The translations under genes were made by a program, and so were the position numbers. The notes under the pieces are model-generated. The model had not been told where the DNA came from. It was given only the letters and a program-made list of their open reading frames with translations, and ran no database searches. Source: Calonectris borealis (taxonomy: Eukaryota). Taken from it: a DNA stretch of 64,000 nt. The stretch is from positions 808,127 to 872,126 of the forward strand of contig NW_027441456.1 in NCBI RefSeq assembly GCF_964195595.1. Direction: 5' to 3'. Numbering within the stretch: position 1 is the stretch's first letter; each line of letters begins with the position of its first letter. Shown one piece after another: positions 1 through 23,037 of the stretch.

Positions 1-1496
1 ACCCCCAGACAACATTTCAAGTTGAACCTGGCCACAGATTTTAAAACAACGTAATTCAGGGGTCAAACTGATGCAAGTCTTTTCTTCTTAAAAAATCCAC
101 ACACTGAAAGAAAGACAACACGCACCCTGCTCTGCTACATCAGGTATCACACTCCTTCCGTTCAGCTTCTATTGCATTTCAGAAATAATACAACAAACCC
201 CAACAGAAAAGGTACAACCACAGCATGCTCCCTAAAAACCTAATCTGAACACCTGACTGTCAATTGCGATCAAAGGAAGAGGTGGTGTGACCCTTCCAAC
301 AGTCTGGATGTGCAGGCAGGACCAAACACTGGCTGGGAATCAAGAATACGCACGCTCATCAAGACAGGCTGGTCAACTTTACCACCAAATCTCTACATCA
401 GCATTTGCTAACGCTGTTCAACTTTGGGTATCCAGAGCTGCACCCAGTTAACGTGAAAGCACCTCCTAGGAGCAGCCGGGATTAAGCCAAGAACTATACC
501 TCTCCCACACGCAAATGGAAGAAAACTCAAACTGTGCTCCCTTCTCCCTCTGCTGGCTCAGAGTTTGTGACAGGAATTGGACTCCGCACTTTGGAAAAGC
601 TCCAAGCTCGCAGCCAAAACAAACTGCAGTTCCCTGGGTCTCAGAGTAATTCTAGAGCTACAGTGGTGATACACATCAACTCTAGATCAGATAATACATG
701 CCAGCACTCATCACTGACCCAAGAAGGCAACCTCCTCCTGCCCTACCCAAGGCTTTCAAATGCAACACGCCTTCTTCCTAGAACAGGACCCTACCCTATT
801 GATTTCTAACACCATTAATATATTTCTTCCTCGAGATGGGACTAGAGAGTCACTACGCAAGCAATCAAGCCACCGCTTGGATGCACTGGAGCCTTTGGGG
901 TATTGTTCTTCCCCACGGCTTCCATGACAAGGAAAATGAGAGACAGGATAGATGGGGAGAAGTTTAACTTACAGTGGAGAAAGCTACGGTGAACAAATAA
1001 GATTGAGACTAAGTCCTTTTTCTCAGGGGAAAAGTACACACCCAAGAAATAATTGCTCAACAGACCAGTAGCATTTTCAAGTTACACAGGAACAAAGAAG
1101 ATTTGGCAAACACAACAGAAGAACCAGCTACCACAACACTACTTTTGTATAGGAGTACTAAAGTGTAAACACACGACACAAAAAATGTATCTATTGCATA
1201 TAGAGAGTTTATAGAAATATTTCATCATTATTTAGTTATATACTATAAGAGACAGTCATATATTTCCGTGTCTATAAACACCTATAAAATCCAAACCTTT
1301 ACTCTTCCTTTGGCCATACACATCTTTCACCTCAACGTACACCAAGAAGAATTCGTAAAATCCAAACGTAATTATCTACAAGATTCCAGTAAAACCTGTA
1401 CCTAAGAAACATTTCAGAGACACTGCTACAAATTTCGTGAAGAATGCAGACAAAATCACCAGTAAAGGAACATTAAAAGCACAATGTTCCCACATC

Positions 1497-1516
1497 TGAA
1501 TTTTTTTTTTTTTTTA
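1497..1516. repeat. Poly(T) tract T16-18, present in every unit (also ~7426-7441 and ~13353-13370)
   Basis: Homopolymer visible in the sequence. Confidence 0.9.
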
Positions 1517-3615
1517 GGAGATGGATCCTGAAGTTTTGCACGTTAGATTATTTTTTAATAAGGTTCTGAAATAGTTTTTGCCATTGGTACCCAACAGCAC
1601 CCGCTTCCCAAGTCTGCAATCATCGAGATCGGTAACTGCAAGGGGTTGTTTCTACAGTTACCCATCGCATTTACCTGGATGTGCTGAGGGTCGACACAAG
1701 ACGAGGATCAGGACCCGCGCTGGCACTCACTGCACCACACCTGCGCTGGCACGATCTGACGAGTGCCAGAATTTCATCCGTCTTCATTCGGCGCAGCCGT
1801 CCCACGCCATCCGCTGCTGTCTGCCCCCAGCAAACACTGCTCGTCCTCACACACTCCGGCAGACGGCGCCCCGAAGCAGGGCATTATTTTAGTTCTGAAT
1901 CGGGTAAGCACAGCATCAAAACAGAGCAATGAAAAAGCCTTCGTTAACATTTACAGAGTTGGCAGCGCGTCAAATCTTTTCTATCCCATTAACAACTTGG
2001 GGTGTACTACCCACTCACGCACATTACCTGCATCACGCATGCCTGTACGTACGTATGCATACGTACGGGCACGTGTGCCTGTATACACCTACGCTACTAC
2101 GTTTCCTTCCCCCCGCCTCTATTTTCTGGTCCAGAAGTATCAAGCTCCACATCCAGTGAAACACAGGCGAGTAGTGAGGCACCAATTCACTTCAGGTCAT
2201 CGGCTATCACCTTGGCATCCAAACTAACACTCACATCACCACCCCAACGACTCTCAAAAGTAACAAGACCAACGTTTCATGAAACTCGCTGCCAAGTGCC
2301 AAAGCTGCCACAATCTGAAGGGGCACTACGAAGGGAATTCTCATGAGCATATCTATCTATCTTTCCCATTGTTTACCTACGCCACCCGCAAGCGTTATTT
2401 TCTGATGCAGTACTTAACCTGCATGTTTTCAGCACAGCAACAACAATCATAAGCGATAGTGCCTCCAGTTCTTTTGGGGACACTAAAAAATAACGGAAAT
2501 TTTTTCCCCGCTCCAGACATAACCAGTTCCTGACATTTTCCACCTCCAGGAACTGGAGTCCAGTTGCTGGGGGCTACATCTGCTCACCCACAACTAGAAA
2601 CCCAACGCTGGTTGCAGTGTTTATCAACGCGAGCAAGCGCAGAGCAGTGCTGCGGCCAGACTCAGTATGTCCTCCTCCCAGGGGAGCCTCGTGGAAACAC
2701 AGCGACAGCCTCCTTGCAGGTAAAGGAGCGAGAAGCTCGCTGCCCAGGTCTCAGAGCAATTCGCGAGCTAAACCAACCATCTGCAGATTTAGATCACACA
2801 ACACACGCCAACACCCATCACAGGCCCAGGGGAATTAACACAGCAGCTCCCTCTGTACATCACGGGGCACGGCAGGGCAAGGGAGGAGCAGCTGGGGAGC
2901 ACGCTCCCAACCCCTAACTCTCCACAAGAGAGTGAGGGCTGTTACCCTTACTAAAAGCACAGCTCAAGCCAGTCCATACTCACACAGGCACCTTCCCTCG
3001 GCCCATACAAAGCTCTACAGGCCACGTGCTTCTCCAAAAGCAACGTGCTCCGGCATCAGGTTTTCTCATCGCGTCCTCTCGCGGCGTCACCTTCAAAAAA
3101 CAGCAACAAAACATTAGTGGTGGCGTCAGCTCGGCGGGTTTCCCTGCCCGGGGGCAATTCGGGCAACTCACCGGCGGCAAGTGCCTGTCGGACACAGACC
3201 TTTCTCCGTCCACCCTCACCACGGGCACGTTGCCTGCCTCGCTTCCCGGCCTGGCGAAGCCCTCTCTGGGGAAACCTCCCGACCAGGCTGAGGTCAACCA
3301 CCAGCTCGCCACTGACCGCCCCGACCAGCAGAAGACCCAGACCCCGCTGAGGGGGCCCGACGCAGACCCCGAGGCCTCCCGGGGGCAGGCGGCCACCCAG
3401 GGCCGCTGCAGCAGGGTCCTGCCGGGCGCTGCCTCCTGCCCTGCCCCGCGGCGTGACGCTGCAACGCCTTCATCAAGAACCATCTCCAATTCTCTCAAAA
3501 CCCTTGTGCTATCTGTTCTGACACCGCTACTTGAAGAACCTTCCTACTCTGTTTGCAAGCTGAAACACACTCCTACAAGCTGCTCCCTTCTTCTCATAAC
3601 TGAACAGACTCACAG

Positions 3616-3660
3616 AACCATTTAGGTTGGAAGGGACTTCTGGAGATCATCTAGTCCAAA
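3616..3660 (-). mobile_element. Short CR1 3'-terminal fragment inside each macrosatellite unit (also at ~9541-9585 and ~15471-15515)
   Basis: 'aggttggaagggacttctggagatcatctagtccaaaccc' is the reverse complement of the canonical CR1 3' end (...ggactagatgatctccagaagtcccttccaacct). Confidence 0.6.
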
Positions 3661-5928
3661 CCCAGGGAAGGAGTTCTGCAATATTTTTTTAGTTTTATTT
3701 TAAAAAAGGAGGGGATGTGTAATACATTCAATAATTATTTCATTCTTATTTCATGATCTGAGATCAAATCCATTTTGAAGGATTACATCGCACTACCTAC
3801 ACACAAGGACTCGTGACCTACGACTGCTGTGCTCGGGCACCCTTTTCAGCCAAAAGGGTACACAGGCCGCTGAAGAGTAAAGCCTGTATTTAGACACAAA
3901 TACTGATTTCACACGCAACAGCATCCTCCATCATAAGCAGCCAAAAGACAGCCGTTACAATGAAATAATGTAACTCGCTCATTCATCAATCATAGGAAGA
4001 TACAACAGGAGAATTACATCAACGCCATTTCCAAAACGGTCATTTTAGTCACATCATAGATTTGTAACAGTCCCTTACCTTACTCCATCGCTGATCTACT
4101 ATTGTGTGCTTTTCAACTGACTTGCTAAGGGGAAGACCTTCTTCTGGCAGGAAAATTGGCCATCTCATGGGCTAGGTCATGGCTTTTTAAAAGCAAACAG
4201 AAAAATTCTAGAGATGGGGAAGTGCTTTAAGCCCACCAATGCCTCCTCTTCACCTCTAACACAGAGGTGGTTTGCCAGCTTCCCAAATAGCCGGGACTTT
4301 CCAGACCTTTCTAGGCTGGGAAGAAGGAAGGCTGCCTAACTTCCATTACTTAATACCTGTTGGGGTTGATTTTGGTTTTCTTCTTCCCTCCCCAAATTAT
4401 AACCTCCCGAGTCTCTACCCGGCTGCTCAGATCTGTCGACCTCTTTGCTCATTTACTGCAACTAAGGGGCAGGCACTGGGCAAACAAGGAAGGTACATCA
4501 ACGGGCATCACCGATGGATCTGTGACCAGCACACCCCGCTGCGATACAGGGGACACCTGCACCACGTCGGGGCGGGAAGGGGGAACACCCTCACCGTCAG
4601 CTAAAGCACTGTGACACCACCGCCGCTCTTCCTCCTCCGCCGAGCACTGAGCCAGGGACCCGGGGACCTTTTCAAGTCAGTCTACATTCTGATTCTTGTA
4701 CCGTGCACTAATTATGAAGCATTTGACCACATCTGCAGAGGGTCCAGGTGACTGAAAACTCTAAGGCACTGAAAACTCAGGTAATGGGAAAGCTACGCTC
4801 AGTGCTAGAAAATGCCGGGTGGCAATACGCTACGCTGATTGCTAAAGTCTTTCTAGAATAATAAAGCTCTAAGTGTAACTGCAACCCTCTGGCCAGTTCT
4901 CAGTCTACCGAGGAGCCTTAACATCAAAAGCCTGGCTGCCCCCATGGCATCAGGCAGTGTCGCGCAATACAGATTCGGAAAGGAACTTTTATAGGCAGGA
5001 TGTGATGCTGCCCAATTTAAAACATCTCCATACAAACAAAACCTCACCCGTCCTGCACAAGCTTCAGAACCAAATCCTCCATACGGGAAAAAAACAAATC
5101 CTGCCGCTTTCCCCACATCAAGAGTACCCAGTTTGCCCTGCAAGGCACAACAGCAACTAATGCACCCTATATCCTAACCAAGCTCAGTCCTGCAGAAGCT
5201 TCAGCAGTGCTAACGAGAAGACACTGTACTTGTGCAAGTGATGATATAGGTCTTACCAGAAGAGCCGGGATTGCTGCAGCACAGAGGGAGAACCTCACAG
5301 CTATTTCTCCTAGAATGTAGGGGGGTAGGGAAGGAAATAACTTGTGGTTTTTTTAACAACAAGAAAAACACGTTCAAATCACCATTGAAAATACGGAACA
5401 AAATGCTGAAAGCCCAGGTTTTATATTGAACAAAAAAACCCCTAACTACAAAGAGCCCCTCTACTGTTTCCTCTTCCACCCCACGAGTAATTTCCTCAAC
5501 AGTCAGCAAGTGCACATCACAACTCCAGTGATCGGCGTGCTAACTGCGCATAAGAGAAAACAAATTCTTTTCCGCTGGTGGATATCTCCAGGTATATATC
5601 CAAATAAACTCCAATAGTGTCACTGGCACAGAGCTATGTGACCTTTAACTTTACCTGTAGTGCCCTACTGGGCGGCTGCAGAGCTGTGGACTCAGAAATA
5701 CCGGGGCACAACTCTTGGCCCACCTGAAACGTTCCCGGCTCTCTCGGCTATCTGGGCAGAAGGAGAAACTATGCCGGGTTTTAGAGCAAGACTGCCTAGC
5801 GCTGCAAATTTTCTTTTGCACACTCGCACCCGGAAGCTAAGCCAGAAGCAGCCACACCTGCAGATGAGGGACTGCTGAGCATGTCCACACCAACAGACCT
5901 CTCCTAACACACACTTCCAGCAATTAAC

Positions 5929-8900
5929 ACCCCCAGACAACATTTCAAGTTGAACCTGGCCACAGATTTTAAAACAATGTAATTCGGGGGTCAAACTGAT
6001 GCAAGTCTTTTCTTCTTAAAAAATCCACACACTGAAAGAAAGACAACACGCACCCTGCTCTGCTACATCAGGTATCACACTCCTTCCATTCAGCTTCTAT
6101 TGCATTTCAGAAATAATACAACAAACCCCAACAGAAAAGGTACAACCACAGCATGCTCCCTAAAAACCTAATCTGAACACCTGACTGTCAATTGCGATCA
6201 AAGGAAGAGGTGGTGTGACCCTTCCAACAGTCTGGATGTGCAGGCAGGACCAAACACTGGCTGGGAATCAAGAATACGCACGCTCATCAAGACAGGCTGG
6301 TGAACTTTACCACCAAATCTCTACATCAGCATTCGCTAACGCTGTTCAACTTTGGGTATCCAGAGCTGCACCCAGTTAACGTGAAAGCATCTCCTAGGAG
6401 CAGCCGGGATTAAGCCAAGAACTATACCTCTCCCACACGCAAATGGAAGAAAACTCAAACTGTGCTCCCTTCTCCCTGTGCTGGCTTAGCGTTTGTGACA
6501 GGAATTGGACTCCACACTTTGGAAAAGCTCCAAGCTCGCAGCCAAAACAAACTGCAGTTCCCTGGGTCTCAGAGTAATTCTAGAGCCACAGTGGTGATAC
6601 ACATCAACTCTAGATCAGATAATACATGCCAGCACTCATCACTGACCCAAGAAGGCAACCTCCTCCTGCCCTACCCAAGGCTTTCAAATGCAACACGCCT
6701 TCTTCCTAGAACAGGACCCTACCCTATTGATTTCTAACACCATTAATATATTTCTTCCTCGAGATGGGACTAGAGAGTCACTACGCAAGCAATCAAGCCA
6801 CCGCTTGGATGCACTGGAGCCTTTGGGGTATTGTTCTTCCCCACGGCTTCCATGACAAGGAAAATGAGAGACAGGATAGATGGGGAGAAGTTTAACTTGC
6901 AGTGGAGAAAGCTACGGTGAACAAATAAGATTGAGACTAAGTCCTTTTTCTCAGGGGAAAAGTACACACCCAATAAATAATTGCTCAACAGACCAGTAGC
7001 ATTTTCAAGTTACACAGGAACAAAGAAGATTTGACAAACACAACAGAAGAACCAGCTACCACAACACTACTTTTGTATAGGAGTACTAAAGTGTAAACAC
7101 ACAACAAAAAATGTATCTATTGCATATAGAGAGTTTATAGAAATATTTCATCATTATTTAGTTATATACTATAAGAGACAGTCATATATTTCCGTGTCTA
7201 TAAACACCTATAAAATCCAAACCTTTACTCTTCCTTTGGCCATACACATCTTTCACCTCAACGTACACCAAGAAGAATTCGTTAAACCCAAACGTAATTA
7301 TCTACAAGATTCCAGTAAAACCTGTACCTAAGAAAGACTTCAGAGACACTGCTACAAATTTCGTGAAGAATGCAGACAAAATCACCAGTAAAGGAACATT
7401 AAAAGCACAATGTTCCCACATCTGAATTTTTTTTTTTTTAGGAGATGGATCCTGGAGTTTTGCACGTTAGATTATTTTTTAATAAGGTTCTGAAATAGTT
7501 TTTGCCATTGGTATCCAACAGCGCCCGCTTCCCAAGTCTGCAATCATCGAGATCGGTAACTGCAAGGGGTTGTTTCTACAGTTACCCATCGCATTTACCT
7601 GGATGTGCTGAGGGTCAACACAAGACGAGGATCAGGACCCGCGCTGGCACTCACTGCACCACACCTGCGCTGGCACGATCTGACGAGTGCCAGGATTTCA
7701 TCTGTCTTCATTCGGCGCAGCCGTCCCACGCCATCCGCTGCTGTCTGCCCCCAGCAAACACTGCTCGTCCTCACACACTCCGGCAGACTGCGCCCCGAAG
7801 CAGGGCATTATTTTAGTTCTGAATCGGGTAAGCACAGCATCAAAACAGAGCAATGAAAAAGCCTTCGTTAACATTTACAGAGTTGGCAGCGCGTCAAATC
7901 TTTTCTATCCCATTAACAACTTGGGGTGTACTACCCACTCACGCACATTACCTGCATCACGCATGCCTGTACGTACGTATGCATACGTACGGGCACGTGT
8001 GCCTGTATACACCTACGCTACTACGTTTCCTTCCCCCCGCCTCTATTTTCTGGTCCAGAAGTATCAAGCTCCACGTCCAGTGAAACACGGGCGAGTAGTG
8101 AGGCACCAATTCACTTCAGGTCATCGGCTATCACCTTGGCATCCAAACTAACACTCACATCACCACCCCAACGACTCTCAAAAGTAACAAGACCAACGTT
8201 TCATGAAACTCGCTGCCAAGTGCCAAAGCTGCCACAATCTGAAGGGGCACTACGAAGGGAATTCTCATGAGCATATCTATCTATCTTTCCCATTGTTTAC
8301 CTACGCCACCCGCAAGCGTTATTTTCTGATGCAGTACTTAACCTGCATGTTTTCAGCACAGCAACAACAATCATAAGCGATAGTGCCTCCAGTTCTTTTG
8401 GGGACACTAAAAAATAACTGCAACTTTTTTCCCCGCTCCAGACATAACCAGTTCCTGACATTTTCCACCTCCAGGAACTGGAGTCCAGTTGCTGGGGGCT
8501 ACATCTGCTCACCCACAACTAGAAACCCAACGCTGGTTGCAGTGTTTATCAACGCGAGCAAGCGCAGAGCAGTGCTGCGGCCAGACTCAGTATGTCCTCC
8601 TCCCAGGGGAGCCTCGTGGAAACACAGCGACAGCCTCCTTGCAGGTAAAGGAGCGAGAAGCTCGCTGCCCAGGTCTCAGAGCAATTCGAGAGCTAAACCA
8701 ACCATCTGCAGATTTAGATCACACAACACACGCCAACACCCATCACAGGCCCAGGGGAATTAACACAGCAGCTCCCTCTGTACATCACGGGGCACGGCAG
8801 GGCAAGGGAGGAGCAGCTGGGGAGCACGCTCCCAACCCCTAACTCTCCACAAGAGAGTGAGGGCTGTTACCCTTACTAAAAGCACAGCTCAAGCCAGTCC

Positions 8901-11855
8901 ATACTCACACAGGCACCTTCCCTCGGCCCATACAAAGCTCTACAGGCCACGTGCTTCTCCAAAAGCAACGTGCTCCGGCATCAGGTTTTCTCATCGCGTC
9001 CTCTCGCGGCGTCACCTTCAAAAAACAGCAACAAAACATTAGTGGTGGCGTCAGCTCGGCGGGTTTCCCTGCCCGGGGGCAATTCGGGCAACTCACCGGC
9101 GGCAAGTGCCTGTCGGACACAGACCTTTCTCCGTCCACCCTCACCACGGGCACGTTGCCTGCCTCGCTTCCCGGCCTGGCGAAGCCCTCTCTGGGGAAAC
9201 CTCCCGACCAGGCTGAGGTCAACCACCAGCTCGCCACTGACCGCCCCGACCAGCAGAAGACCCAGACCCCGCTGAGGGGGCCCGACGCAGACCCCGAGGC
9301 CTCCCGGGGGCAGGCGGCCACCCAGGGCCGCTGCAGCAGGGTCCTGCCGGGCGCTGCCTCCTGCCCTGCCCCGCGGCGTGACGCTGCAACGCCTTCATCA
9401 AGAACCATCTCCAATTCTCTCAAAACCCTTGTGCTATCTGTTCTGACACCGCTACTTGAAGAACCTTCCTACTCTGTTTGCAAGCTGAAACACACTCCTA
9501 CAAGCTGCTCCCTTCTTCTCATAACTGAACAGACTCACAGAACCATTTAGGTTGGAAGGGACTTCTGGAGATCATCTAGTCCAAACCCAGGGAAGGAGTT
9601 CTGCAATATTTTTTTAGTTTTATTTTAAAAAAGGAGGGGATGTGTAATACATTCAATAATTATTTCATTCTTATTTCATGATCTGAGATCAAATCCATTT
9701 TGAAGGATTACATCGCACTACCTACACACAAGGACTCGTGACCTACGACTGCTGTGCTCGGGCACCCTTTTCAGCCAAAAGGGTACACAGGCCGCTGAAG
9801 AGTAAAGCCTGTATTTAGACACAAATACTGATTTCACACGCAACAGCATCCTCCATCATAAGCAGCCAAAAGACAGCCGTTACAATGAAATAATGTAACT
9901 CGCTCATTCATCAATCATAGGAAGATACAACAGGAGAATTACATCAACGCCATTTCCAAAACGGTCATTTTAGTCACATCATAGATTTGTAACAGTCCCT
10001 TACCTTACTCCATCGCTGATCTACTATTGTGTGCTTTTCAACTGACTTGCTAAGGGGAAGACCTTCTTCTGGCAGGAAAATTGGCCATCTCATGGGCTAG
10101 GTCATGGCTTTTTAAAAGCAAACAGAAAAATTCTAGAGATGGGGAAGTGCTTTAAGCCCACCAATGCCTCCTCTTCACCTCTAACAGAGAGGTGGTTTGC
10201 CAGCTTCCCAAATAGCCGGGACTTTCCAGACCTTTCTAGGCTGGGAAGAAGGAAGGCTGCCTAACTTCCATTACTTAATACCTGTTGGGGTTGATTTTGG
10301 TTTTCTTCTTCCCTCCCCAAATTATAACCTCCCGAGTCTCTACCCGGCTGCTCAGATCTGTCGACCTCTTTGCTCATTTACTGCAACTAAGGGGCAGGCA
10401 CTGGGCAAACAAGGAAGGTACATCAACGGGCATCACCGATGGATCTGTGACCAGCACACCCCGCTGCGATACAGGGGACACCTGCACCACGTCGGGGCGG
10501 GAAGGGGGAACACCCTCACCGTCAGCTAAAGCACTGTGACACCAACGCTGCTCTTCCTCCTCCGCCGAGCACTGAGCCAGGGACCCGGGGACCTTTTCAA
10601 GTCAGAGTCTACATTCTGATTCTTGTACCGTGCACTAATTATGAAGCATTTGACCACATCTGCAGAGGGTCCAGGTGACTGAAAACTCTAAGGCACTGAA
10701 AACTCAGGTAATGGGAAAGCTACGCTCAGTGCTAGAAAAGGCCGGGTGGCAATACGCTACGCTGATTGCTAAAGTCTTTCTAGAATAATAAAGCTCTAAG
10801 TGTAACTGCAACCCTCTGGCCAGTTCTCAGTCTACCGAGGAGCCTTAACATCAAAAGCCTGGCTGCCCCCATGGCATCAGGCAGTGTCGCGCAATACAGA
10901 TTCGGAAAGGAACTTTTATAGGCAGGATGTGATGCTGCCCAATTTAAAACATCTCCATACAAACAAAACCTCACCCGTCCTGCACAAGCTTCAGAACCAA
11001 ATCCTCCATACGGGAAAAAAACAAATCCTGCCGCTTTCCCCACATCAAGAGCACCCAGTTTGCCCTGCAAGGCACAACAGCAACTAATGCACCCTATATC
11101 CTAACCAAGCTCAGTCCTGCAGAAGCTTCAGCAGTGCTAACGAGAAGACACTGTACTTGTGCAAGTGATGATATAGGTCTTACCAGAAGAGCCGGGATTG
11201 CTGCAGCACAGAGGGAGAACCTCACAGCTATTTCTCCTAGAATGTAGGGGGGTAGGGAAGGAAATAACTTGTGGTTTTTTTAACAACAAGAAAAACACGT
11301 TCAAATCACCATTGAAAATACGGAACAAAATGCTGAAAGCCCAGGTTTTATATTGAACAAAAAAACCCCTAACTACAAAGCGCCCCTATGCTGTTTCCTC
11401 TTCCACCCCACGGGTAATTTCCTCAACAGTCAACAAGTGCACATCACAACTCCAGTGATCGGCGTGCTAACTGCGCATAAGAGAAAACAAATTCTTTTCC
11501 GCTGGTGGATATCTCCAGGTATATATCCAAATAAACTCCAATAGTGTCACTGGCACAGAGCTATGTGACCTTTAACTTTACCTGTAGTGCCCTACTGGGC
11601 GGCTGCAGAGCTGTGGACTCAGAAATACCGGGGCACAACTCTTGGCCCACCTGAAACGTTCCCGGCTCTCTCGGCTATCTGGGCAGAAGGAGAAACTATG
11701 CCGGGTTTTAGAGCAAGACTGCCTAGCGCTGCAAAGTTTCTTTTGCACACTCGCACCCGGAAGCTAAGCCAGAAGCAGCCACACCTGCAGATGAGGGACT
11801 GCTGGGCATGTCCACACCAACAGACCTCTCCTAACACACACTTCCAGCAATTAAC
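5929..11855. repeat. Macrosatellite unit copy 2 (full length)
   Basis: Colinear with copy 1 over the full 5.93 kb, with near-identical ORF translations. Confidence 0.95.
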
Positions 11856-14800
11856 ACCCCCAGACAACATTTCAAGTTGAACCTGGCCACAGATTTTAAA
11901 ACAATGTAATTCGGGGGTCAAACTGATGCAAGTCTTTTCTTCTTAAAAAATCCACACACTGAAAGAAAGACAACACGCACCCTGCTCTGCTACATCAGGT
12001 ATCACACTCCTTCCGTTCAGCTTCTATTGCATTTCAGAAATAATACAACAAACCCCAACAGAAAAGGTACAACCACAGCATGCTCCCTAAAAACCTAATC
12101 TGAACACCTGACTGTCAATTGCGATCAAAGGAAGAGGTGGTGTGACCCTTCCAACAGTCTGGATGTGCAGGCAGGACCAAACACTGGCTGGGAATCAAGA
12201 ATACGCACGCTCATCAAGACAGGCTGGTGAACTTTACCACCAAATCTCTACATCAGCATTTGCTAACGCTGTTCAACTTTGGGTATCCAGAGCTGCACCC
12301 AGTTAACGTGAAAGCATCTCCTAGGAGCCGCCGGGATTAAGCCAAGAACTATACCTCTCCCACACGCAAATGGAAGAAAACTCAAACTGTGCTCCCTTCT
12401 CCCTCTGCTGGCTTAGCGTTTGTGACAGGAATTGGACTCCACACTTTGGAAAAGCTCCAAGCTCGCAGCCAAAACAAACTGCAGTTCCCTGGGTCTCAGA
12501 GTAATTCTAGAGCCACAGTGGTGATACACATCAACTCTAGATCAGATAATACATGCCAGCACTCATCACTGACCCAAGAAGGCAACCTCCTCCTGCCCTA
12601 CCCAAGGCTTTCAAATGCAACACGCCTTCTTCCTAGAACAGGACCCTACCCTATTGATTTCTAACACCATTAATATATTTCTTCCTCGAGATGGGACTAG
12701 AGAGTCACTACGCAAGCAATCAAGCCACCGCTTGGATGCACTGGAGCCTTTGGGGTATTGTTCTTCCCCACGGCTTCCATGACAAGGAAAATGAGAGACA
12801 GGATAGATGGGGAGAAGTTTAACTTGCAGTGGAGAAAGCTACGGTGAACAAATAAGATTGAGACTAAGTCCTTTTTCTCAGGGGAAAAGTACACACCAAA
12901 TAAATAATTGCTCAACAGACCAGTAGCATTTTCAAGTTACACAGGAACAAAGAAGATTTGACAAACACAACAGAAGAACCAGCTACCACAACACTACTTT
13001 TGTATAGGAGTACTAAAGTGTAAACACACAACAAAAAATGTATCTATTGCATATAGAGAGTTTATAGAAATATTTCATCATTATTTAGTTATATACTATA
13101 AGAGACAGTCATATATTTCCGTGTCTATAAACACCTATAAAATCCAAACCTTTACTCTTCCTTTGGCCATACACATCTTTCACCTCAACGTACACCAAGA
13201 AGAATTCGTAAAACCCAAACGTAATTATCTACAAGATTCCAGTAAAACCTGTACCTAAGAAAGACTTCAGAGACACTGCTACAAATTTCGTGAAGAATGC
13301 AGACAAAATCACCAGTAAAGGAACATTAAAAGCACAATGTTCCCACATCTGAATTTTTTTTTTTTTAGGAGATGGATCCTGGAGTTTTGCACGTTAGATT
13401 ATTTTTTAATAAGGTTCTGAAATAGTTTTTGCCATTGGTATCCAACAGCGCCCGCTTCCCAAGTCTGCAATCATCGAGATCGGTAACTGCAAGGGGTTGT
13501 TTCTACAGTTACCCATCGCATTTACCTGGATGTGCTGAGGGTCGACACAAGACGAGGATCAGGACCCGCGCTGGCACTCACTGCACCACACCTGCGCTGG
13601 CACGATCTGACGAGTGCCAGGATTTCATCCGTCTTCATTCGGCGCAGCCGTCCCACGCCATCCGCTGCTGTCTGCCCCCAGCAAACACTGCTCGTCCTCA
13701 CACACTCCGGCAGACGGCGCCCCGAAGCAGGGCATTATTTTAGTTCTGAATCGGGTAAGCACAGCATCAAAACAGAGCAATGAAAAAGCCTTAGTTAACA
13801 TTTACAGAGTTGGCAGCGCGTCAAATCTTTTCTATCCCATTAACAACTTGGGGTGTACTACCCACTCACGCACATTACCTGCATCATGCATGCCTGTACG
13901 TACGTATGCATACGTACGGGCACGTGTGCCTGTATACACCTACGCTACTACGTTTCCTTCCCCACCGCCGCTATTTTCTGGTCCAGAAGTATCAAGCTCC
14001 ACGTCCAGTGAAACACAGGCGAGTAGTGAGGCACCAATTCACTTCAGGTCATCGGCTATCACCTTGGCATCCAAACTAACACTCACATCACCACCCCAAC
14101 GACTCTCAAAAGTAACAAGACCAACGTTTCATGAAACTCGCTGCCAAGTGCCAAAGCTGCCACAATCTGAAGGGGCACTACGAAGGGAATTCTCATGAGC
14201 ATATCTATCTATCTTTCCCATTGTTTACCTACGCCACCCGCAAGCGTTATTTTCTGATGCAGTACTTAACCTGCATGTTTTCAGCACAGCAACAACAATC
14301 ATAAGCGATAGTGCCTCCAGTTCTTTTGGGGACACTAAAAAATAACTGCAACTTTTTTCCCCGCTCCAGACATAACCAGTTCCTGACATTTTCCACCTCC
14401 AGGAACTGGAGTCCAGTTGCTGGGGGCTACATCTGCTCACCCACAACTAGAAACCCAACGCTGGTTGCAGTGTTTATCAACGCGAGCAAGCGCAGAGCAG
14501 TGCTGCGGCCAGACTCAGTATGTCCTCCTCCCAGGGGAGCCTCGTGGAAACACAGCGACAGCCTCCTTGCAGGTAAAGGAGCGAGAAGCTCGCTGCCCAG
14601 GTCTCAGAGCAATTCGAGAGCTAAACCAACCATCTGCAGATTTAGATCACACAACACACGCCAACACCCATCACAGGCCCAGGGGAATTAACACAGCAGC
14701 TCCCTCTGTACATCACGGGGCACGGCAGGGCAAGGGAGGAGCAGCTGGGGAGCACGCTCCCAACCCCTAACTCTCCACAAGAGAGTGAGGGCTGTTACCC

Positions 14801-15800
14801 TTACTAAAAGCACAGCTCAAGCCAGTCCATACTCACACAGGCACCTTCCCTCGGCCCATACAAAGCTCTACAGGCCACGTGCTTCTCCAAAAGCAACGTG
14901 CTCCGGCATCAGGTTTTCTCATCGCGTCCTCTCGCGGCGTCACCTTCAAAAAACAGCAACAAAACATTAGTGGTGGCGTCAGCTCGGCGGGTTTCCCTGC
15001 CCGGGGGCAATTCGGGCAACTCACCGGCGGCAAGTGCCTGTCGGACACAGACCTTTCTCCGTCCACCCTCACCACGGGCACGTTGCCTGCCTCGCTTCCC
15101 GGCCTGGCGAAGCCCTCTCTGGGGAAACCTCCCGACCAGGCTGAGGTCAACCACCACCTCGCCACTGACCGCCCCAACCAGCAGAAGACCCAGACCCCGC
15201 TGAGGGGGCCCGACGCAGACCCCGAAGCCTCCCGGGGGCAGGCGGCCACCCAGGGCCGCTGCAGCAGGGTCCTGCCGGGCGCTGCCTCCTGCCCTGCCCC
15301 GCGGCGTGACGCTGCAACGCCTTCATCAAGAACCATCTCCAATTCTCTCAAAACCCTTGTGCTATCTCTTCTGACACCGCTACTTGAAGAACCTTCCTAC
15401 TCTGTTTGCAAGGCTGAAACACACTCCTACAAGCTGCTCCCTTCTTCTCATAACTGAACAGACTCACAGAACCATTTAGGTTGGAAGGGACTTCTTGAGA
15501 TCATCTAGTCCAAACCCAGGGAAGGAATTCTGCAACATTTTTTTAGTTTTATTTTAAAAAATGAGGGGATGTGTAATACATTCAATAATTATTTCATTCT
15601 TATTTCATGATCTGAGATCAAATCCATTTTGAAGGATTACATCGCACTACCTACACACAATGACGCGTGACCTACGACTGCTGTGCTTAGGCACCCTTTT
15701 CAGCCAAAAGGGTACAAAGGCCGCTAAAGAGTAAAGCCTGTAATTAGACACAAATACTGATTGCACACGCAACAGCATCCTCCATCATAAGCAGCCAAAA
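11856..15800. repeat. Macrosatellite unit copy 3 (truncated at unit position ~3947)
   Basis: Colinear with unit positions 1-3947. At 15800/15801 the sequence jumps from '...gcagccaaaag' (unit ~3947) to 'ctgcacccagttaacgtgaaag' (unit ~437). Confidence 0.9.
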
Positions 15801-16427
15801 GCTGCACCCAGTTAACGTGAAAGCATCTCCTAGGAGCAGCCGGGATTAAGCCAAGAACTATACCTCTCCCACACGCAAATGGAAGAAAACTCAAACTGTG
15901 CTCCCTTCTCCCTCTGCTGGCTCAGAGTTTGTGACAGGAATTGGACTCCACACTTTGGAAAAGCTCCAAGCTCGCGGCCAAAACAAACTGCAGTTCCCTG
16001 GGTCTCAGAGTAATTCTAGAGCTACAGTGGTGATACACATCAGCCCTAGATCAGATAATACATGCCAGCACTCATCACTGACCCAAGAGGGCAACCTCCT
16101 CCTGCCCTACCCAAGGCTTTCAAATGCAACACGCCTTCTTCCTAGAACAGGACCCTACCCTATTGATTTCTAACACCATTAATATATTTCTTCCTCGAGA
16201 TGGGACTAGAGAGTCACTACGCAAGCAATCAAGCCACCGCTTGGATGCACTGGAGCCTTTGGGGTATTGTTCTTCCCCACGGCTTCCATGACAAGGAAAA
16301 TGAGAGACAGGATAGATGGGGAGAAGTTTAACTTACAGTGGAGAAAGCTACGGTGAACAAATAAGATTGAGACTAAGTCCTTTTTCTCAGGGGAAAAGTA
16401 CACACCCAATAAATAATTGCTCAACAG
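15801..16427. repeat. Partial unit copy 4 (unit positions ~437-1063)
   Basis: ORFs 15898..16173 and 16206..16454 match 534..809 and 842..1060. Homology ends after 'aattgctcaacaga' at ~16427. Confidence 0.9.
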
Positions 16428-16454
16428 ATCGGCATAATTCTCAGAAAACACCAA

Positions 16455-16640
16455 CCCCTAACTCTCCACAAGAGAGTGAGGGCTGTTACCCTTACTAAAA
16501 GCACAGCTCAAGCCAGTCCATACTCACACAGTCACCTTCCCTCAGCCCATACAAAGCTCTACAGGCCACGTGCTTCTCCAAAAGCAACGTGCTCCGGCAT
16601 CAGGTTTTCTCATCGCGTCCTGTCGCCGTATCACCTTCAA
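16455..16640. repeat. Unit-homologous segment (unit ~2905-3090) leading into the edge CpG island
   Basis: 'cccctaactctccacaagagagtgagggctgttaccc...' matches unit 2905 onward. ORF 16476.. matches ORFs 2932/8857/14785 (MRAVTLTKSTAQASPYSH...). Confidence 0.85.
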
Positions 16641-17420
16641 AAAGCACCAACAACACGTCAGCGGTTGCGTCAGCTCGGCGCGTTTCTGTGTCCGGGGGTC
16701 ATTCGGGCAACTCGGCAGCGGCGAGCGCCTGCTCGGACAGAGACCGTTCTCCGTCCCCCCTGACCGCGGGCACATTTCCTGCCTCGCTTCCCGGCCTGGC
16801 CGAACCCTCCGGACGAGGCTGAGGCCAACCACCGGCTCACGGCTGAGCGCCCCGACCAGTGGGAGGCCGAGACCCCGCCAAGGGCTTTGGGCCCCCGCCG
16901 CCAGGCCCGGTCCGGGCGGGCTCTGCCGCAACTGCCGGCCCCCACCACGCCGCTGGAAGGTGCTACCGCGGCCGGAGCCCCCGCGCGCCCCACAGTGCGG
17001 CGGCCGCGGCCCCGGGCCAGGCCTCGGCCCCACCACGCGGCAGCAGCACCCACCTTTACCGCCGCCCGCGCCGGAAAGAGCGTCAGGGCGCGGGGCGGGG
17101 CAAGAAGTAGGTCCCGGAAGGACCCCGCTATAGGTGCCCCTGCCGTTCGCCTGACTCGCGCGGGCGGACTGAGGTGGCGGGACCTGGCGGTCAGGCGGAC
17201 GCCCCGCGGCAGGGAAGGACCCCTCCCGGAAGCGGGGTCTCCGCAGGGAGCGCCGCGGCGCTGTGGAGAAGCCGGTCCTAGTGCCCAGCCCCGGAGCGGG
17301 TGAGGGCAGCGGCGCTTCCCTCCAGGAAGAAACCCCTTTCCTTCCCAATTAAAACTGGTTGGTCTGTTAATTACCGACGTTGGGCTCTGGTAGACGTGAT
17401 CCGTGCCGGGGGGGAACACC
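16640..17420. promoter_or_regulatory. CpG island at the array edge. It is the diverged, CpG-retaining homolog of unit region ~3090-3480. GC-rich sequence continues to ~17980.
   Basis: Extreme GC and CpG density (cggcggccgcggccccgggcc...). ORF 16570 (MLLQKQRAPASGFLIASCRR...) is a diverged version of unit ORF 3026 (MLLQKQRAPASGFLIASSRG...). Confidence 0.7.
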
Positions 17421-17647
17421 ATTTTGAGACCATAAATGAAAAAAGACGTATAATGCTGCTGGCGTAGAGCAATGGAAACTAGGCTCTCTGTTTTGGGTTT
17501 GTGGGTATTTGGGGGGTCTCGGGGGGGGGTCTGAGGGTTACGGGTTGGTCCTTTTGAGGGGTTTCGATGGGGGCGTTGGGTGTGTTTTTAAAAACGGCAG
17601 AGCCTTGTCCAGCGTGGGAGGGGGTTGACCTTCCCGCCGGTGAACAA

Positions 17648-17693
17648 GATGGCGGCTGGCAGCCGTGAAGCAGTGCCCGCCTCAGCGCAGCCC
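17648..17693 (+). other. Speculative first coding exon (ATG in Kozak context 'aacaagATGG', 15 codons MAAGSREAVPASAQP, then donor GTGAGC)
   Basis: Sequence 'gaacaagatggcggctggcagccgtgaagcagtgcccgcctcagcgcagcccg|gtgagcg' lies inside a CpG island. No downstream exons were identified. Confidence 0.12.
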
Positions 17694-17899
17694 GGTGAGC
17701 GGCACCGCCCGGCGCTGCCTGCAGCGGGCGGGTGGCAGGGACGGCAGTGAAGCACGGGCGCTCCGGTGCGTAGCTGCCGGTGAATCACAGAAGGGTTCGC
17801 GGGGAAGGGACCGCTGGAGGTCAGCTCGTCCACCCCCCCGCTCAGGCAGGGCCGCCCGGAGCCAGGGCCCAGGGCCCCGGCCAGTTGGGGTTTGACTGT

Positions 17900-18335
17900 C
17901 TCCGGGGACGGAGACCCCACAGCCTGTCTGGGCAACCTGTGCCAGCGTCTGACCCCCCTCACCGTAAAAAAAAAAGTGTTTTCTTGTGTTCAGGTGGGAT
18001 TTCATTCGCTCTAATTTGTGCCCGTTGCCTCTCACCCTGTCGGTGGGCGCTGCTGAGGGCGATGGCTCCCTCCGCTTCCATCCCGTGATGATGATCCCAT
18101 TCATTGATAAGATCCCCCTGAGCCTTCAACAGGCTGAACAGCTCGCTCAGCCCCATGCTCCAGACCTTCCTCATCGTCGTGGCCCATCCCTGGACTCTCT
18201 CCAGTACGTCCGTGCCTTGTACTGGGGATCCCAGCACTGGACACAGCGCTCCAGGCGCGGCCTCACCAGCGCAGAGCGATTTCCCCACGGAGTCCGGGGA
18301 AGGTGAATTCTGCCGCTGCTGAAAGAAAGGCCTAT
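17900..18335 (-). mobile_element. CR1 LINE fragment (ORF2 C-terminal part)
   Basis: 'tctgggcaacctgtgccagcgtctgacc...' parallels the CR1 copy at 62740-62810. Minus-strand ORF 18171..18356 'LERCVQCWDPQYK' resembles CR1 ORF2 'LEYCVQFWSPQYKKD'. Confidence 0.6.
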
Positions 18336-20094
18336 CCAAGGTAAAAGAAATCTCACAAAAATTCATCCTTCTCAGCTCTTCTTGCTGCAAATGTAGTTAA
18401 GTATATATACTGATGGAAAGGAATAGTGGCTTTAAATATACTGGATTTGAAAGAAACGTGATGCTGTAAGTCATTCTCAAGGAAAAGCCACGCACTTTCA
18501 CTTGAATCATCCTAATGGAACATTTACTTGCTTAGGAAGTAGTAGTGAGAGAGGCCACGCGCTCTGAAGCTGATGTTCTGTTACCGCGGGATAGCATCTA
18601 AATCCTTAAGACAGGCACACGTGCAGACACCAGCGACGCAGCCTTGGCATTGCTGAGCTGGAAGGGCTGTTCGGCTGCTGGACGCTGAGGCGGAGCGAGA
18701 ACCGCAGTACGGCCGTAACGTGCTTCAGACACTGGACAACTTACCAGAAATACAATTTAAATGATGTGACAAGCAAAGTGACTAAAAGCAACCGCACCTC
18801 TCTGCTTAGAAATACATTTTTATTACAATGCAGCAATGCATGTCAGAAATAACATTTTGATCATCTAATTTTACAGTGAAAAAACATTGCATTGTGAGGT
18901 TCTTGTTTCTTGCCCCTTATTCTATTTGGGCTTTTGGGGCACTAACCAAGTTCAGAATAGCGTTGTTATAACTGAAAATAAGGCAGTTTCCTACAGGTTC
19001 TTTCACATGGGATCAGTTAAAATGAAAACATGTATAAAATTAATGATTTTTTTTCCCACTACGATAAAAACACATACCTGTATTTCTCAAGAGCTGTACT
19101 TAACATTCATCCATAAAGAAGACATCTTGCTTAAAGCACAAGAAAACAAGTATTTTCTTCATAAATGTTATAGGTTTCTTTGAGGCACAGAGATAAATGC
19201 ACTGAATAACAATTTCTGTCTGCTGGACTCAGGTGAGTAAGATGGTTGAGTCACAGAAAAAAAGCCCTATTATGCTTTATCTTTTGAAAATAAAAACTAG
19301 TTTTTGTTCATACTGACTCATGGACGTGTGTAAAATATAGATAATCTGCAAGTCGTAATCCAGCCACCATTTGAGAAAAATAACACCTATCTGTGTTGTA
19401 ATTTATGAGAATGTTTCTGAAAGGTCCAGAGGTCAATATGTATTTGCTTTCAGTTTTTTTAAAAGATGCAAGTTTCTAAAGGCCACAAAGCCACAGTTTC
19501 AGCATATTTATTTTAGCAAGTGGTGACCTAGAGGCTGTGTGTGGCAACATGGTGTTCCTGAGGAAACAGAATTCCTTTTTTAAATTTCCCTGAGATTTAT
19601 TAATTTGATATCCACCCAAACTCCAGTGCTAAAACAGTGGGAGCAAATCTGTATCATTATAAACAATACAAAACCACCTAAAATACAGTTCCTTGTTACA
19701 TGCTGAATACCTTCACAGACAAAAAGAAAAATTTTAAAAATCTGAATTTTGTTCACTTTTTTGATCATACAAATTTTACAGAGAAGGTGTTTACCTGTTC
19801 TCCCACCAAAAGCCAAAGATTTGAGTGAAAGAGAGTGAGCGGGGAAAGATGACAACCAATCACTTTGAAATTCAGAAATGTTTAGGAAACACCAAGTTTG
19901 TTAGGCAGAAGGAATGAAGTGAGGGGATGGACGGGGAGTACAGAAGTAGTGCTTAATCGTGTATGCAATAAAAAGATTTTGAAGGAAACGGGTTTTCTCC
20001 ACACCTTTCTAATTGTATTGAGAAACGCACTAAAATCCTCTTCCATGAGAACACAGAACACTACAACAGCACCAGACATGCTTGACACATTTCT

Positions 20095-20166
20095 TCAAGC
20101 CTTGTATTTGCCAACATGTTCACGAGCTATGATCATCCTTTGAACCTGAGCAGTTCCCTCATAAAT
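20095..20166 (-). CDS. ACADM: ACADM exon 12 coding part: [23 protein letters not shown] (stop TGA = rc of 20095-20097)
   Basis: Acceptor 'cttttcag'. Human: [23 protein letters not shown]. Confidence 0.9.
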
Positions 20167-20606
20167 CTGAAAAGAAGAATTAAAATAATGTTAGCTGCTC
20201 ATTTTAAAAAATATTTTTTCAACAGATCTTTCTACACTTGTAAACCTTCATAGCACTAATCCAGTGTGGATTAGGATGTGCAGAAAGACAGAGAAAACTG
20301 AAAAAATTCCAGTGTGACTTGAGTAACTACAAGATGCCGAGAGACAGTCTTGTTCTCTCAGATGCTCTCATCAAAACTCAGTAAGGTTCTCATGAAAGTA
20401 ACAGACATAGTGGGTGAAGAAGGATGGGGAAAATGTCTTATCTGGGGAAGAAAATACATAATTTAGGTTTTACAAATTACGTTTTAAAACTGTGTGGAGG
20501 GGAGGAGGTGATCTGTGCTGAAAGTGTGGTATTTTCTTTGAGTAGCCTTTCAAGGCCGTAGCAAATGTTCCCTTTCATCCATTTATGCCCTTCAACACAG
20601 TATTTA

Positions 20607-20637
<31 letters not shown>

Positions 20638-23037
20638 ACCATGTATTCTTGCATTTTCCTCTAGAAACATTCTGCTCTCTCTGTTCTATTTGGCTTGCTA
20701 GCAGCAAAGCCAGAGATACACAATGTATACACACGTATGTAGGTCTAATGCAGAAAGAAGGCCATATGCTCCACAGGTACAGTGCAACGTGATTCAAGGG
20801 CAACATATTTTAGGGGTTTAAGTGTTTCAGTTCCCAGTTGTTCGGCAAATTGCTCAAATGCATGCAAATTCACTTTCTCTGTAGTCATAAAATAGGGATA
20901 ATCTTCCCAAACCTTACAAAGCTTTTCAAAAATAAAGACACTATAACACTAGTTTTTTGGTTCAGAGGCAACTGTTCATTCTCAAAGTGAATTCTCTGAC
21001 TACTGCTGCTTACCCCGTATCGATTCAGTTCATCGAGCAGATTTTGCTTTGTCAGTACTAGGTGCCCTCTGGAGTAAACTGACCTGGAAGCTCTCCTCTC
21101 TGCGTACCCCCAATACCCTCCGAACCCTAAAGAAGACATAATGGTCCAAGGCTACAGCTGGACCTTACAATGACGTGCATAGTGAGGACGTTCAGTCCAA
21201 ACAGGCCTGCTGTGAACTCGGCTTCCCCAAAGCCGTACAGGAGATGCGGGGGCCTCAGCAGCTCCTCCTGCCGTCTGCGGATCTGCTCCTGCTGCACTGA
21301 ATTACTTGCTGATGAAGATGATGCATTACTTGCTGATGATGAAGAAGCCACAAAATTCAAGTGTAAAGACATCAAAACCCACAGCCTTCTTAAGTAACCA
21401 CGAGAAAGGCTTTGGTTTGCAAGCCAATGGGAGTCAAGAATCCTTGACAATTAAAGAAGGGAAAGTTTTCTGAGTTTGAGAAACTAAGTTACAAGTTTCT
21501 ATCATAGTAGCCTGGATTTGTAGCCAGAGAGAAACCAGGAGCAAAGCATGGACACCTGGGAACGTTACCAGTAAACACAGTAACAGAATTGTGTCATACC
21601 GAGAAATAACCAAATATGTGGAAGAAAAGAACACATGGAAAACAAAGTTTCTGTACATGAAGCATATGGCCAAAAGCATACACCATCTGGAATTGGGCAG
21701 TAATATAGTAAAGCATAATCAAGAGACATGGATGAAATAACTGTAAAGAGAAAAGCCTTTCCTGTGTTCTTTTGGGGATGAAGGGAAGCAGAAAAACACC
21801 AAAGATGTAATCCTAAATCATTAATTTGAACAATTAAAAAAAAAAGTCTATCTAGCCATGCATTTGTGATGGATCAGTGTAATGGAAAATCTAAATAACT
21901 GGGATCCTGTAAAATCAGTCTCAACTTTCAAATAAACTTCTAACCCTCCCTCCCTCCCACTTTTTCTAGAAACACATGGAACCTGACAGGAAAAAAGCCC
22001 AATCATAGCAAAGTTCAATTACTCATTCATTTCCTCACTTGCAGGAGTGCAATTAGTACTAAGAACCTTTAGATTCCAAAACAGCAGTTTTCTATCCTCG
22101 GATAGAGAAAAATTCTCGGCTAGTGAGAATACTTTTCATTTTAAAGTCGTCTGTAAGAGAAATTTTAACTACCTAGAATCTTAAGAATGACAGCTGTTAT
22201 AATTAGCATTACAGATCATGGTCCACATGCATTTCTTGATATCATCTATTTTGTCATATCTATTTTGTTTATATTCTATGTCATCTATTTTGTTTATAAT
22301 CTAGTCATTATAATGTCAGAAAGAGGTGAAAAGATAAAGATTACTGGTTTTCCTGAACATAATTAAATCATTCTTGCTGAATAAAGAACTGTAGCGTAGA
22401 GAAGAATTATGACAAGGAATAATTTCTTGGTAATAGTACTGCAGAAAAAGATCTGGGCATTATGGGTGACTATGGGCTAAACGTGAGTAAATATGAGCAT
22501 GTTTTGTTGTGTTGTTTTTTTTTTTAAAAAAAGGCTAATCGCTCCAGGTTGTGCCACACTTCTGTTAATACAACATATGCAAGATAATTAATCCATGATA
22601 CTCAGTGCTGGTTACTTCTCAACTGAAGTAATCTGCCCAGTTTATGATACCAAAGTTTCAGACAGAAGGTTTAGAGCACAGCAAGAAGTGAGGAAGAGAA
22701 CAGCATTATACATAAACCTACTTACAGAATACCAAAGCAAGCATTGGTATTTTGATCAGTGTTTTCTACAGTCCTTTTTTCTAAGAGTTCAAACACTTCA
22801 AGCTGAAGAGTCCAAGAATTTCAAAGAGTTACCACATCAGAAAAACAAAACCACACCACTAAATTTGTTTCTCTTGTGTAGGTTAAGTTGTTGATCTAAT
22901 GCAAAGAGTTTTGTATGCAAGAATTTGCCTGATTTGAACACCCTTTCTTTAAATGGAAGGATTATTGCTCTCATCCTCAAAACTTTTTTTATATGTGTAC
23001 ATCATGATTCCAAATAAGTAGCCATTAGTTTATTTTA

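Follow-up and report, generated by a model that had tools for sequence, protein, structure and literature searches.

A tandem array of decayed RABGGTB fragments carrying intact SNORD45 genes, a likely multi-copy snoRNA host, in Calonectris borealis

Head-to-tail arrays whose units combine non-coding exons with one intronic small nucleolar RNA (snoRNA) of the box C/D class are known from the SNORD115/116 and SNORD113/114 loci. Their snoRNAs are orphans, and the arrays lie in imprinted domains, are confined to eutherians and have units of about 2 kb. In SNORD115/116 the copies are homogenised by non-allelic gene conversion, which copies at the array edge escape (PMC12429941). In the chicken, snoRNAs were reported to be mostly singletons, and the imprinted tandem snoRNA arrays of mammals to be without counterparts (PMC2653536). 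Here we describe an array of 5.93-kb units in a 64,000-nucleotide stretch of the Calonectris borealis genome (assembly GCF_964195595.1, contig NW_027441456.1, positions 808,127 to 872,126), called the window below. The array abuts a CpG island, P0, and its units hold decayed exons of RABGGTB together with an intact SNORD45 gene. We consider it likely that the locus is a tandemly amplified, non-coding, multi-copy SNORD45 host gene, formed from a pseudogenised 5′ fragment of RABGGTB.

Each unit of this array likewise holds non-coding exons and one intronic box C/D snoRNA, with splicing predicted from splice sites that have been kept. Unlike SNORD115/116, however, the snoRNA is a canonical guide for 18S ribosomal RNA (rRNA), the unit is 5.9 kb long and comes from the 5′ half of the snoRNA's own coding host, and the array is found in a bird. 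By analogy, the array would work like the SNORD115/116 arrays, although it belongs to none of those families.

SNORD45 genes lie in introns of RABGGTB in the chicken (PMC2653536), as they do in human, and the chicken U45 homologue in these introns targets A158 and U171 of 18S rRNA (PMC2653536). The array shares with RABGGTB carrying SNORD45A/B/C (human) or GGgCD5 (the chicken U45 homologue) the snoRNA family RF00279, the 18S targets, the neighbouring gene ACADM and the introns concerned, after exon 2 and after exon 3. It differs from the functional RABGGTB host in being non-coding, truncated after exon 6 and tandemly repeated, and in keeping only one of the two snoRNAs. It also resembles the GAS5/SNHG genes, with short exons, no conserved open reading frame (ORF) and an apparent role limited to transcription and splicing that free intronic snoRNAs. 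Those genes, to which the array does not belong, are single-copy and carry different snoRNAs in successive introns, whereas here one snoRNA has been multiplied together with its whole host unit.

Origin of the unit and conservation of its snoRNA

In tblastn searches with RABGGTB, degenerate exons were found on the minus strand of every unit. The main match covered residues 41-100 (about 50% identity, E = 5e-16), and weaker matches covered residues 1-38 and 140-159. The unit was collinear, at 65-71% identity, with the real RABGGTB genes of four birds, Amazona guildingii (L001), Penelope pileata (L002), Phainopepla nitens (L003) and Antrostomus (L004), all represented by short-read draft assemblies; look-ups of RABGGTB isoforms from Nyctibius, Aptenodytes and Calypte yielded no gene record. 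Judged by these alignments, the unit is the 5′ part of RABGGTB in minus-strand orientation and extends from intron 1 into intron 6. Read on that strand, it contains about 260 bp of intron 1, pseudo-exon 2, a degenerate SNORD45 paralogue (sno1-psi), pseudo-exon 3, an intact SNORD45 (sno2), a deletion that removed exon 4, pseudo-exons 5 and 6, and about 600 bp of intron 6. The intron 6 part reaches down to about unit position 4391 and is followed by about 1 kb without assignment. This segment (unit 3353-4391) has no detectable counterpart in the four bird RABGGTB loci or elsewhere in the window, apart from a CR1-like fragment of 56-70 nt at 3594-3663 and an inverted promoter piece at 3372-3460. 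The unit is not a processed (retro-)pseudogene: introns 2, 3 and 5 and part of intron 6 are present and collinear with the real gene. A first-pass annotation, made from the sequence of the window, had derived the array from the CpG island that it adjoins. Our alignments argue for the intron 1 to intron 6 fragment as the source instead, and island and unit have in common no more than about 430 bp, which belong to the island's downstream shore (intron 1 and exon 2). Neither the SNORD45 gene in every copy nor the decayed RABGGTB exons had figured in that account. The concatenated pseudo-exon peptides, used as a protein query for annotated products of similar arrays elsewhere, gave no match, and the array was thus not found in a second species.

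Pseudo-exon 2 (minus strand, 2984-3090, 8909-9015, 14837-14943 and 16528-16634) retains its acceptor AG and its donor GTGAGT, and all four copies, including the one attached to P0, carry an identical 1-nt deletion, GATG-CCGGAGC, that shifts the frame. Pseudo-exon 3 (minus strand, 1675-1863, 7599-7787 and 13526-13714; RABGGTB residues about 41-101) retains the donor GTAAAT and has lost its original acceptor. Compared with the real bird exon 3, its identity is about 50% at the protein level and 69-72% at the DNA level, whereas the four birds share 90-97% identity in their real exons. Pseudo-exon 5 (minus strand, 5257-5309 and 11184-11236) and pseudo-exon 6 (minus strand, 5048-5137 and 10975-11064) have each retained the splice sites at both ends; pseudo-exon 6 has lost 10 and 12 nt internally and gained 1 nt by insertion. 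Acceptor or donor dinucleotides thus survive at seven of eight pseudo-exon boundaries. There are indels in pseudo-exons 3 and 6, exon 4 is deleted and nothing past exon 6 is present, so that no unit has the start codon and the intact frame over nine coding exons of a functional RABGGTB. No unit ORF of at least 100 residues contained a Pfam domain, and no intact RABGGTB copy was visible in the window in the tblastn search. On the evidence of these lesions every copy is a pseudogene, with no capacity left to code for the protein.

The position of the array was fixed by ACADM. By tblastn, the minus strand at 20101-31718 holds intact coding exons of ACADM, which cover residues 37-420 and are 72-98% identical to human. 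The gene order in Amazona guildingii is ACADM, RABGGTB, MSH4, and in Phainopepla nitens ACADM is directly upstream of RABGGTB. The distance from the ACADM stop codon to the exon 2-like segment nearest the CpG island is 3.4 kb in the window, compared with 4.0 kb in Amazona. With intact ACADM upstream at Amazona-like spacing, the array therefore occupies the ancestral site of RABGGTB, next to ACADM on its downstream side, in this neoavian bird.

The SNORD45 genes were identified as matches to Rfam family RF00279, which has a gathering score of 42 bits. Intact sno2 genes lie on the minus strand at 635-719 in copy A (62.4 bits), 6563-6647 in copy B (58.5 bits), 12490-12574 in copy C (58.5 bits) and 15999-16083 in a terminal copy (59.4 bits). 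All four have boxes C, D′, C′ and D of sequence GUGAUGA, CUGA, UGAUGU and CUGA, respectively, and the array sno2 includes the segment GAGUUGAUGUGUAUCACCACUGU(A/G)GCUC. A terminal stem of 9-10 bp is predicted, with a minimum free energy of about -35 kcal/mol and fold z-scores of -3.1 and -2.4. The two guides pair perfectly with 18S rRNA, in duplexes of 15 bp (positions 156-170) and 11 bp (positions 169-179), and the fifth base pair upstream of the D and D′ boxes corresponds to 18S-A159 and 18S-U172 in human numbering. These targets agree with A158 and U171 of the chicken U45 homologue. The sno2 gene is collinear with intron 3 of the real RABGGTB in the four birds, and its host here is a pseudogene copy. 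The paralogue sno1-psi (minus strand, 2742-2823, 8670-8751 and 14598-14679) reached 26.9 bits in a relaxed Rfam search, below the gathering score, and so is not a member of RF00279. It has a D′ box of sequence GTGA, mutations in both guides and a fold z-score of +0.5. Neither sno1-psi nor the decayed sno2 of Amazona has a terminal stem in the predicted fold.

When the array sno2 was compared with the intact sno2 of Penelope, none of the 54 functional nucleotides differed, as against 11 of the other 31, and the 400-nt flanks were 68% identical. At the equivalent 54 positions sno1-psi has nine changes. Given the unit's own neutral rates, the probability of no change in 54 positions is 2.6e-6. 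These counts show that sno2 has been under selective conservation while the unit was non-coding and the other sequence drifted. An origin of the intact sno2 by conversion from sno1 was considered and rejected, as its internal D′-C′ segment is clearly of the sno2 type.

The two SNORD45 paralogues have had different fates in the other birds. In Penelope both are intact, at 60 and 64 bits (13590-13673 and 11646-11728 of L002). The sno2 gene is decayed in Amazona (29.9 bits, L001 12362-12439) and Antrostomus (27.1 bits, L004 2328-2412) and undetectable in Phainopepla (L003). In these three birds sno1 scores above 42 bits (50.7 in Amazona, 61.8 in Antrostomus and 62.8 in Phainopepla), although the Amazona sno1 has changes in its D′ guide despite passing the threshold. 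Paralogue loss in birds is thus reciprocal, the array in the window having kept sno2 and lost sno1. The guides of the two paralogues are the same, and the pattern therefore looks like drift between redundant genes. The Penelope scaffold also contains a 550-bp duplicate, 99.3% identical, that includes sno1 (L002 10127-10675 and 11517-12066). It flanks N gaps, with promoter-like sequence (10689-10845) between the copies, and either arose in scaffolding, as an artefact, or represents a genuine small duplication of promoter, exon 2 and sno1.

Copy structure and homogenisation

In the regular array, bases 1-15801, the unit recurs every 5927/5928 bp and the copies are 98.7-99.3% identical. In self-BLAST, 1-9872 matched 5929-15801 at 99.19% over 9877 columns (E = 0) and 1-3947 matched 11856-15801 at 98.73%; a repeat search of the window gave start-to-start spacings of 5924-5929 bp. 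All copies have the RABGGTB sense on the minus strand. Two are complete, copy A (1-5928), which was the one mapped onto the Amazona and Antrostomus genes, and copy B (5929-11855), 99.27% identical to A. Copy C (11856-15801) is cut at unit position 3947 and is followed by a 629-bp terminal piece (15800-16428) that corresponds to unit 436-1064 at 98.4-98.9% identity and contains the fourth intact sno2. Next comes an older, non-homogenised copy of unit 2907-3353 (16451-16884, 86-90% identity), an intron 1/pseudo-exon 2 segment that is attached to the ancestral promoter. The junction at 15800/15801 passes from unit 3947 to unit 436 through a 2-nt AG microhomology, and that at 16428/16451 passes from unit 1064 to unit 2907 with about 22 nt of filler. 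Both junctions had been placed correctly in the first-pass annotation, and its description of a 5.93-kb tandem unit at more than 98% identity with rearranged terminal copies agrees with our self-BLAST. The locus comprises at least 2.67 regular copies, besides the rearranged pieces, and as its head-to-tail units exceed the minimum of about 1 kb it is a macrosatellite in the structural sense, as had been proposed from its kilobase-scale repeats. The array crosses the left edge of the window, and the copy count given here is a lower bound. Tandem Repeats Finder, run on 1-20000, reported no repeat because the period of the array exceeds the longest that it can detect (500 bp).

Copies A and B differ by 43 substitutions (27 of them transitions) and four small indels, only one of which lies in a homopolymer run. 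Among the three long copies there are 52 variable sites, 22 of them in CpG dinucleotides. The copies therefore carry genuine substitutions and are distinct paralogues, not one sequence written repeatedly. The concentration of variable sites at CpG suggests that the array body is methylated in the germ line. Differences between A and B are unevenly spread. Across unit 2500-4000 (window 8425-9925), a stretch that includes pseudo-exon 2 and the CpG-rich segment of the unit, there is one substitution in unit 2500-3000 and none in 3000-4000, compared with up to seven differing sites per 500 bp outside it. Next to the junction, in unit 3500-3947, 13 differences were counted in copy C. The pattern suggests either that a conversion tract passed through recently or that the stretch is locally constrained.

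Substitutions on the lineage leading to the unit were polarised with two outgroup genes and compared with four control lineages, namely the RABGGTB introns of Amazona and Antrostomus, the ACADM introns of the window, about 10 kb away, and ACADM of Amazona. The unit lineage had 271 AT-to-GC and 48 GC-to-AT changes, or 0.245 and 0.084 per site, respectively, while the controls had 0.046-0.100 AT-to-GC and 0.085-0.116 GC-to-AT changes per site. The pseudo-exons followed the same pattern as the unit, with 58 AT-to-GC and 11 GC-to-AT changes. The AT-to-GC excess is thus about threefold and specific to the array, and the GC-to-AT rate is not raised. The unit has a GC content of 48% and a CpG observed/expected ratio of 0.56, compared with 35.5% and 0.26 in the parental gene segment. 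The sense-strand G+T skew of the unit is inherited from the parental gene, the GC skew being 0.16 in the unit and 0.15 in the Amazona gene, and the TA skew 0.11 and 0.10, respectively.

GC-biased gene conversion characteristically leaves an excess of AT-to-GC changes alone, and we infer that such conversion has been running in the array for a long time. It would account for copies that stay about 99% alike and for a unit that is more diverged from the real genes (65-71% identity) than are the ACADM introns (71-79%) without being older. It would also account for the array-edge copy next to P0, which is only 86-90% alike compared with about 99% inside the array, as in SNORD115/116, where edge copies escape. 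A duplication predating the split of the neoavian orders was considered as the cause of the extra divergence and rejected: the excess is wholly AT-to-GC, with GC-to-AT changes equal to the controls, and neither Amazona nor Phainopepla has a pseudogene copy between ACADM and RABGGTB. The GC-to-AT rate in the pseudo-exons is 11/144, or 0.076, compared with neutral lineage rates of 0.084-0.116. This match to neutral rates indicates that the exons drifted for most of the lineage's history. The high identity between copies had been taken in the first-pass annotation to imply recent amplification or ongoing homogenisation. Of these, homogenisation is directly supported by the AT-to-GC bias, found in the array and missing from the control lineages, including the ACADM introns of the window, and a recent origin is made doubtful by the neutral drift of the pseudo-exons.

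Promoter, proposed function and competing explanations

The CpG island P0 (minus strand, 16601-17400) has a GC content of 0.71 and a CpG observed/expected ratio of 0.93. It represents the ancestral RABGGTB promoter: its core can be aligned to the Amazona promoter and to that of Penelope (76% over 161 nt), and it retains a GC box, a CTCTTTCCGG motif and a GC-box/CTTCCGG core. A relic of exon 1 (CTCTTTCCGG...GGTAAAG) lies on the minus strand at 17054-17080, with AAG in the place of the Amazona initiator ATG, and its GTGGGT donor is kept at 17048-17053. The start region of P0 holds a pyrimidine tract, CTCTTTCC, as in the 5′ terminal oligopyrimidine (5′TOP) class to which GAS5/SNHG genes belong, and the P0 gene is probably a TOP gene. 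A CR1-like ORF fragment lies just upstream of the island, at 17588-18104.

When the units were aligned to P0 and to the bird promoters, no core promoter or exon 1 was found in sense orientation. Each unit has a CpG-rich stretch at 3000-3600 (GC 0.62, observed/expected 0.74) that holds an inverted copy of the P0 core-promoter segment (plus strand, 3372-3460), 76% identical over 72 nt to the Penelope promoter. The homology between island and unit was thus found to be narrower than first described. It is firm for 16451-16884 (unit 2907-3353, 86-90%) and does not reach 17400; beyond 16884 there is only the short inverted match of 17079-17170 to unit 3460-3372, at about 70%.

In the model that we propose, P0 drives a non-coding minus-strand transcript that would start near 17080. 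The first intron region of this transcript would already hold one sno2 (15999-16083), and transcription would then enter the array. The transcript would be spliced at the sites kept by the pseudo-exons, SNORD45 would be released from the introns, and sno2 would be assembled into a small nucleolar ribonucleoprotein that methylates 18S rRNA. As the units have no sense core promoter, copies further downstream would rely on read-through or on the CpG-rich segment at 3000-3600, which may also serve as a promoter within each unit. Unequal exchange and non-allelic gene conversion would keep the copies about 99% alike and enrich the unit in GC. The final member of the array, past the left edge of the window, would be an intact RABGGTB.

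Several points weigh against a working multi-copy SNORD45 host gene. Transcription, splicing and snoRNA release are predicted here from DNA sequence alone. Copies far from P0 may be poorly transcribed, the sense core promoter being missing from the units. By our estimate, seven of eight splice sites would be kept by chance with a probability of about 0.06, which is only marginally unlikely. The sno2 gene lies about 1.2 kb from the next downstream acceptor instead of the usual 70-80 nt or so, a spacing that is also present in the parental gene. With 99% identity among the four copies, a selection test within the array has no power, and occasional gene conversion from the species' intact RABGGTB may have contributed to the conservation of sno2. 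Finally, the numbering of the sno2 targets depends on the 18S sequence used, the length of which, 1869 nt, is correct.

The array might alternatively be an inert tandem segmental duplication of a dead fragment, in which sno2 has either been refreshed by short conversion tracts from the neighbouring functional RABGGTB or had too little time to decay. Copies that differ by just 0.7-1.3% fit very recent amplification, gene conversion is clearly active in the lineage, the units are without a sense-oriented core promoter, and of the snoRNA copies annotated in vertebrates no more than about a third are expressed (PMC10234308). This explanation is nevertheless unlikely, since sno1, four exons and the non-functional positions of sno2 drifted neutrally while the 54 functional nucleotides stayed untouched. 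Conversion would have refreshed the flanks too, yet these are 29-32% diverged from the genes of other birds, and the GC-to-AT rate of the pseudo-exons implies a long non-coding history. If the array were instead an expanded first intron or 5′ untranslated region of a functional RABGGTB, the P0 transcript would run on to intact exons left of the window. In favour of this, the orthologous promoter position is occupied by P0, 3.4 kb downstream of the ACADM stop codon (4.0 kb in Amazona), the island is a strong one and the window shows no intact RABGGTB. However, the exon 1 relic has no start codon, the frameshifted pseudo-exons have good splice sites and would be spliced in, breaking the frame, and a real copy to the left would require an exon 1 of its own with an ATG. 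We regard this arrangement as quite improbable.

The locus had also been likened to D4Z4 and DXZ4, macrosatellites with a role in chromatin organisation or epigenetic silencing that would not depend on an encoded RNA. The likeness extends to kilobase-scale tandem units adjoining a CpG island, very high identity between copies, a 600-bp CpG-rich segment in each unit (GC 0.62, observed/expected 0.74), probable copy-number variation, and the concentration of variable sites at CpG that suggests germ-line methylation. It did not survive the tests that were run. Each D4Z4 unit has a double-homeobox (DUX4-like) ORF and is a CpG island throughout; here the unit ORFs have no recognisable domain, the GC content of the unit is far lower (0.48, with CpG observed/expected 0.56), and the conserved element is a snoRNA. 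In DXZ4 every monomer has a CTCF site; here a motif scan of 1-17420 for the CTCF core motif CCASYAGRKGGCRS, allowing up to one mismatch, found no match. A gene fragment with a selectively conserved snoRNA already accounts for the retention of the unit, and a D4Z4/DXZ4-type role is very improbable. That one or two real copies were falsely expanded, or haplotypes placed in tandem, by the assembly is hardly credible. The array touches the window edge and such arrays are often mis-sized in assemblies, but the three long copies differ at 52 sites with an excess at CpG (22) of the kind produced by evolution, only one of the four A-B indels is in a homopolymer run, the junctions are clean and unique, and the terminal copies differ in structure.

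If the locus is a multi-copy SNORD45 host gene, it would be an exception to the description of birds as having snoRNAs that are mostly singletons and never arranged in tandem arrays (PMC2653536). It offers a clean natural case of a snoRNA that outlived the coding function of its host gene, in which the amplified unit is a fragment of the host and not the snoRNA alone. The case comes with an internal control: a unit in which four exons and a second snoRNA decayed has left the 54 functional nucleotides of sno2 unchanged. The threefold AT-to-GC excess, by which GC content rose from 35.5% to 48%, gives a quantitative picture of long-term concerted evolution in a kilobase-scale array. Gene annotation is likely to overlook the array or to call it RABGGTB-like, and in short-read assemblies it would be collapsed. 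In the literature searched, the coverage of which was incomplete, we found no account of such an array. In a further-reaching version, the ancestral RABGGTB promoter now drives only a non-coding SNORD45 gene, a copy-number-variable macrosatellite that GC-biased conversion has homogenised and that selection on snoRNA dosage has maintained over tens of millions of years. The mammalian snoRNA macro-arrays would then have a counterpart in a bird, built on a canonical guide for rRNA methylation, and the length of the array could tune the stoichiometry of 18S Am159 and Um172. We put this forward tentatively, as a possibility that is rather doubtful in all its parts together.

Other features of the window

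A GC-rich repeat family, with members of about 250-660 bp and 75-98% identity, occupies 42300-55000, between the ACADM promoter region and an exon of an NLR gene. Examples are 50650-51312, which matches 52291-52954 at 95.5%, and 48595-49124, which matches 53910-54443 at 97.6%. These repeats may be repeated NLR exon-intron modules or a separate family. The NLR exon (minus strand, 58178-59926) is open over 582 residues and encodes the NACHT region of an NLRP3/NLRP12-like protein. Its best match was in Podargus strigoides (79%), with about 69% identity to several other neoavian orders, and the strong matches were all avian or reptilian.

Two fragments of CR1, a long interspersed nuclear element, lie on the minus strand at 28571-29743 and 60823-61312. 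Their ORFs are reverse-transcriptase-like and C-terminal, and the 3′ ends of the two fragments match at 95% over 439 bp. GC-rich stretches (GC 0.55-0.65) were also found at 33000-35000 and 61000-62600. The former is just upstream of the mapped ACADM exons, the expected place of the ACADM promoter and exon 1, and the latter contains long low-complexity ORFs on both strands.

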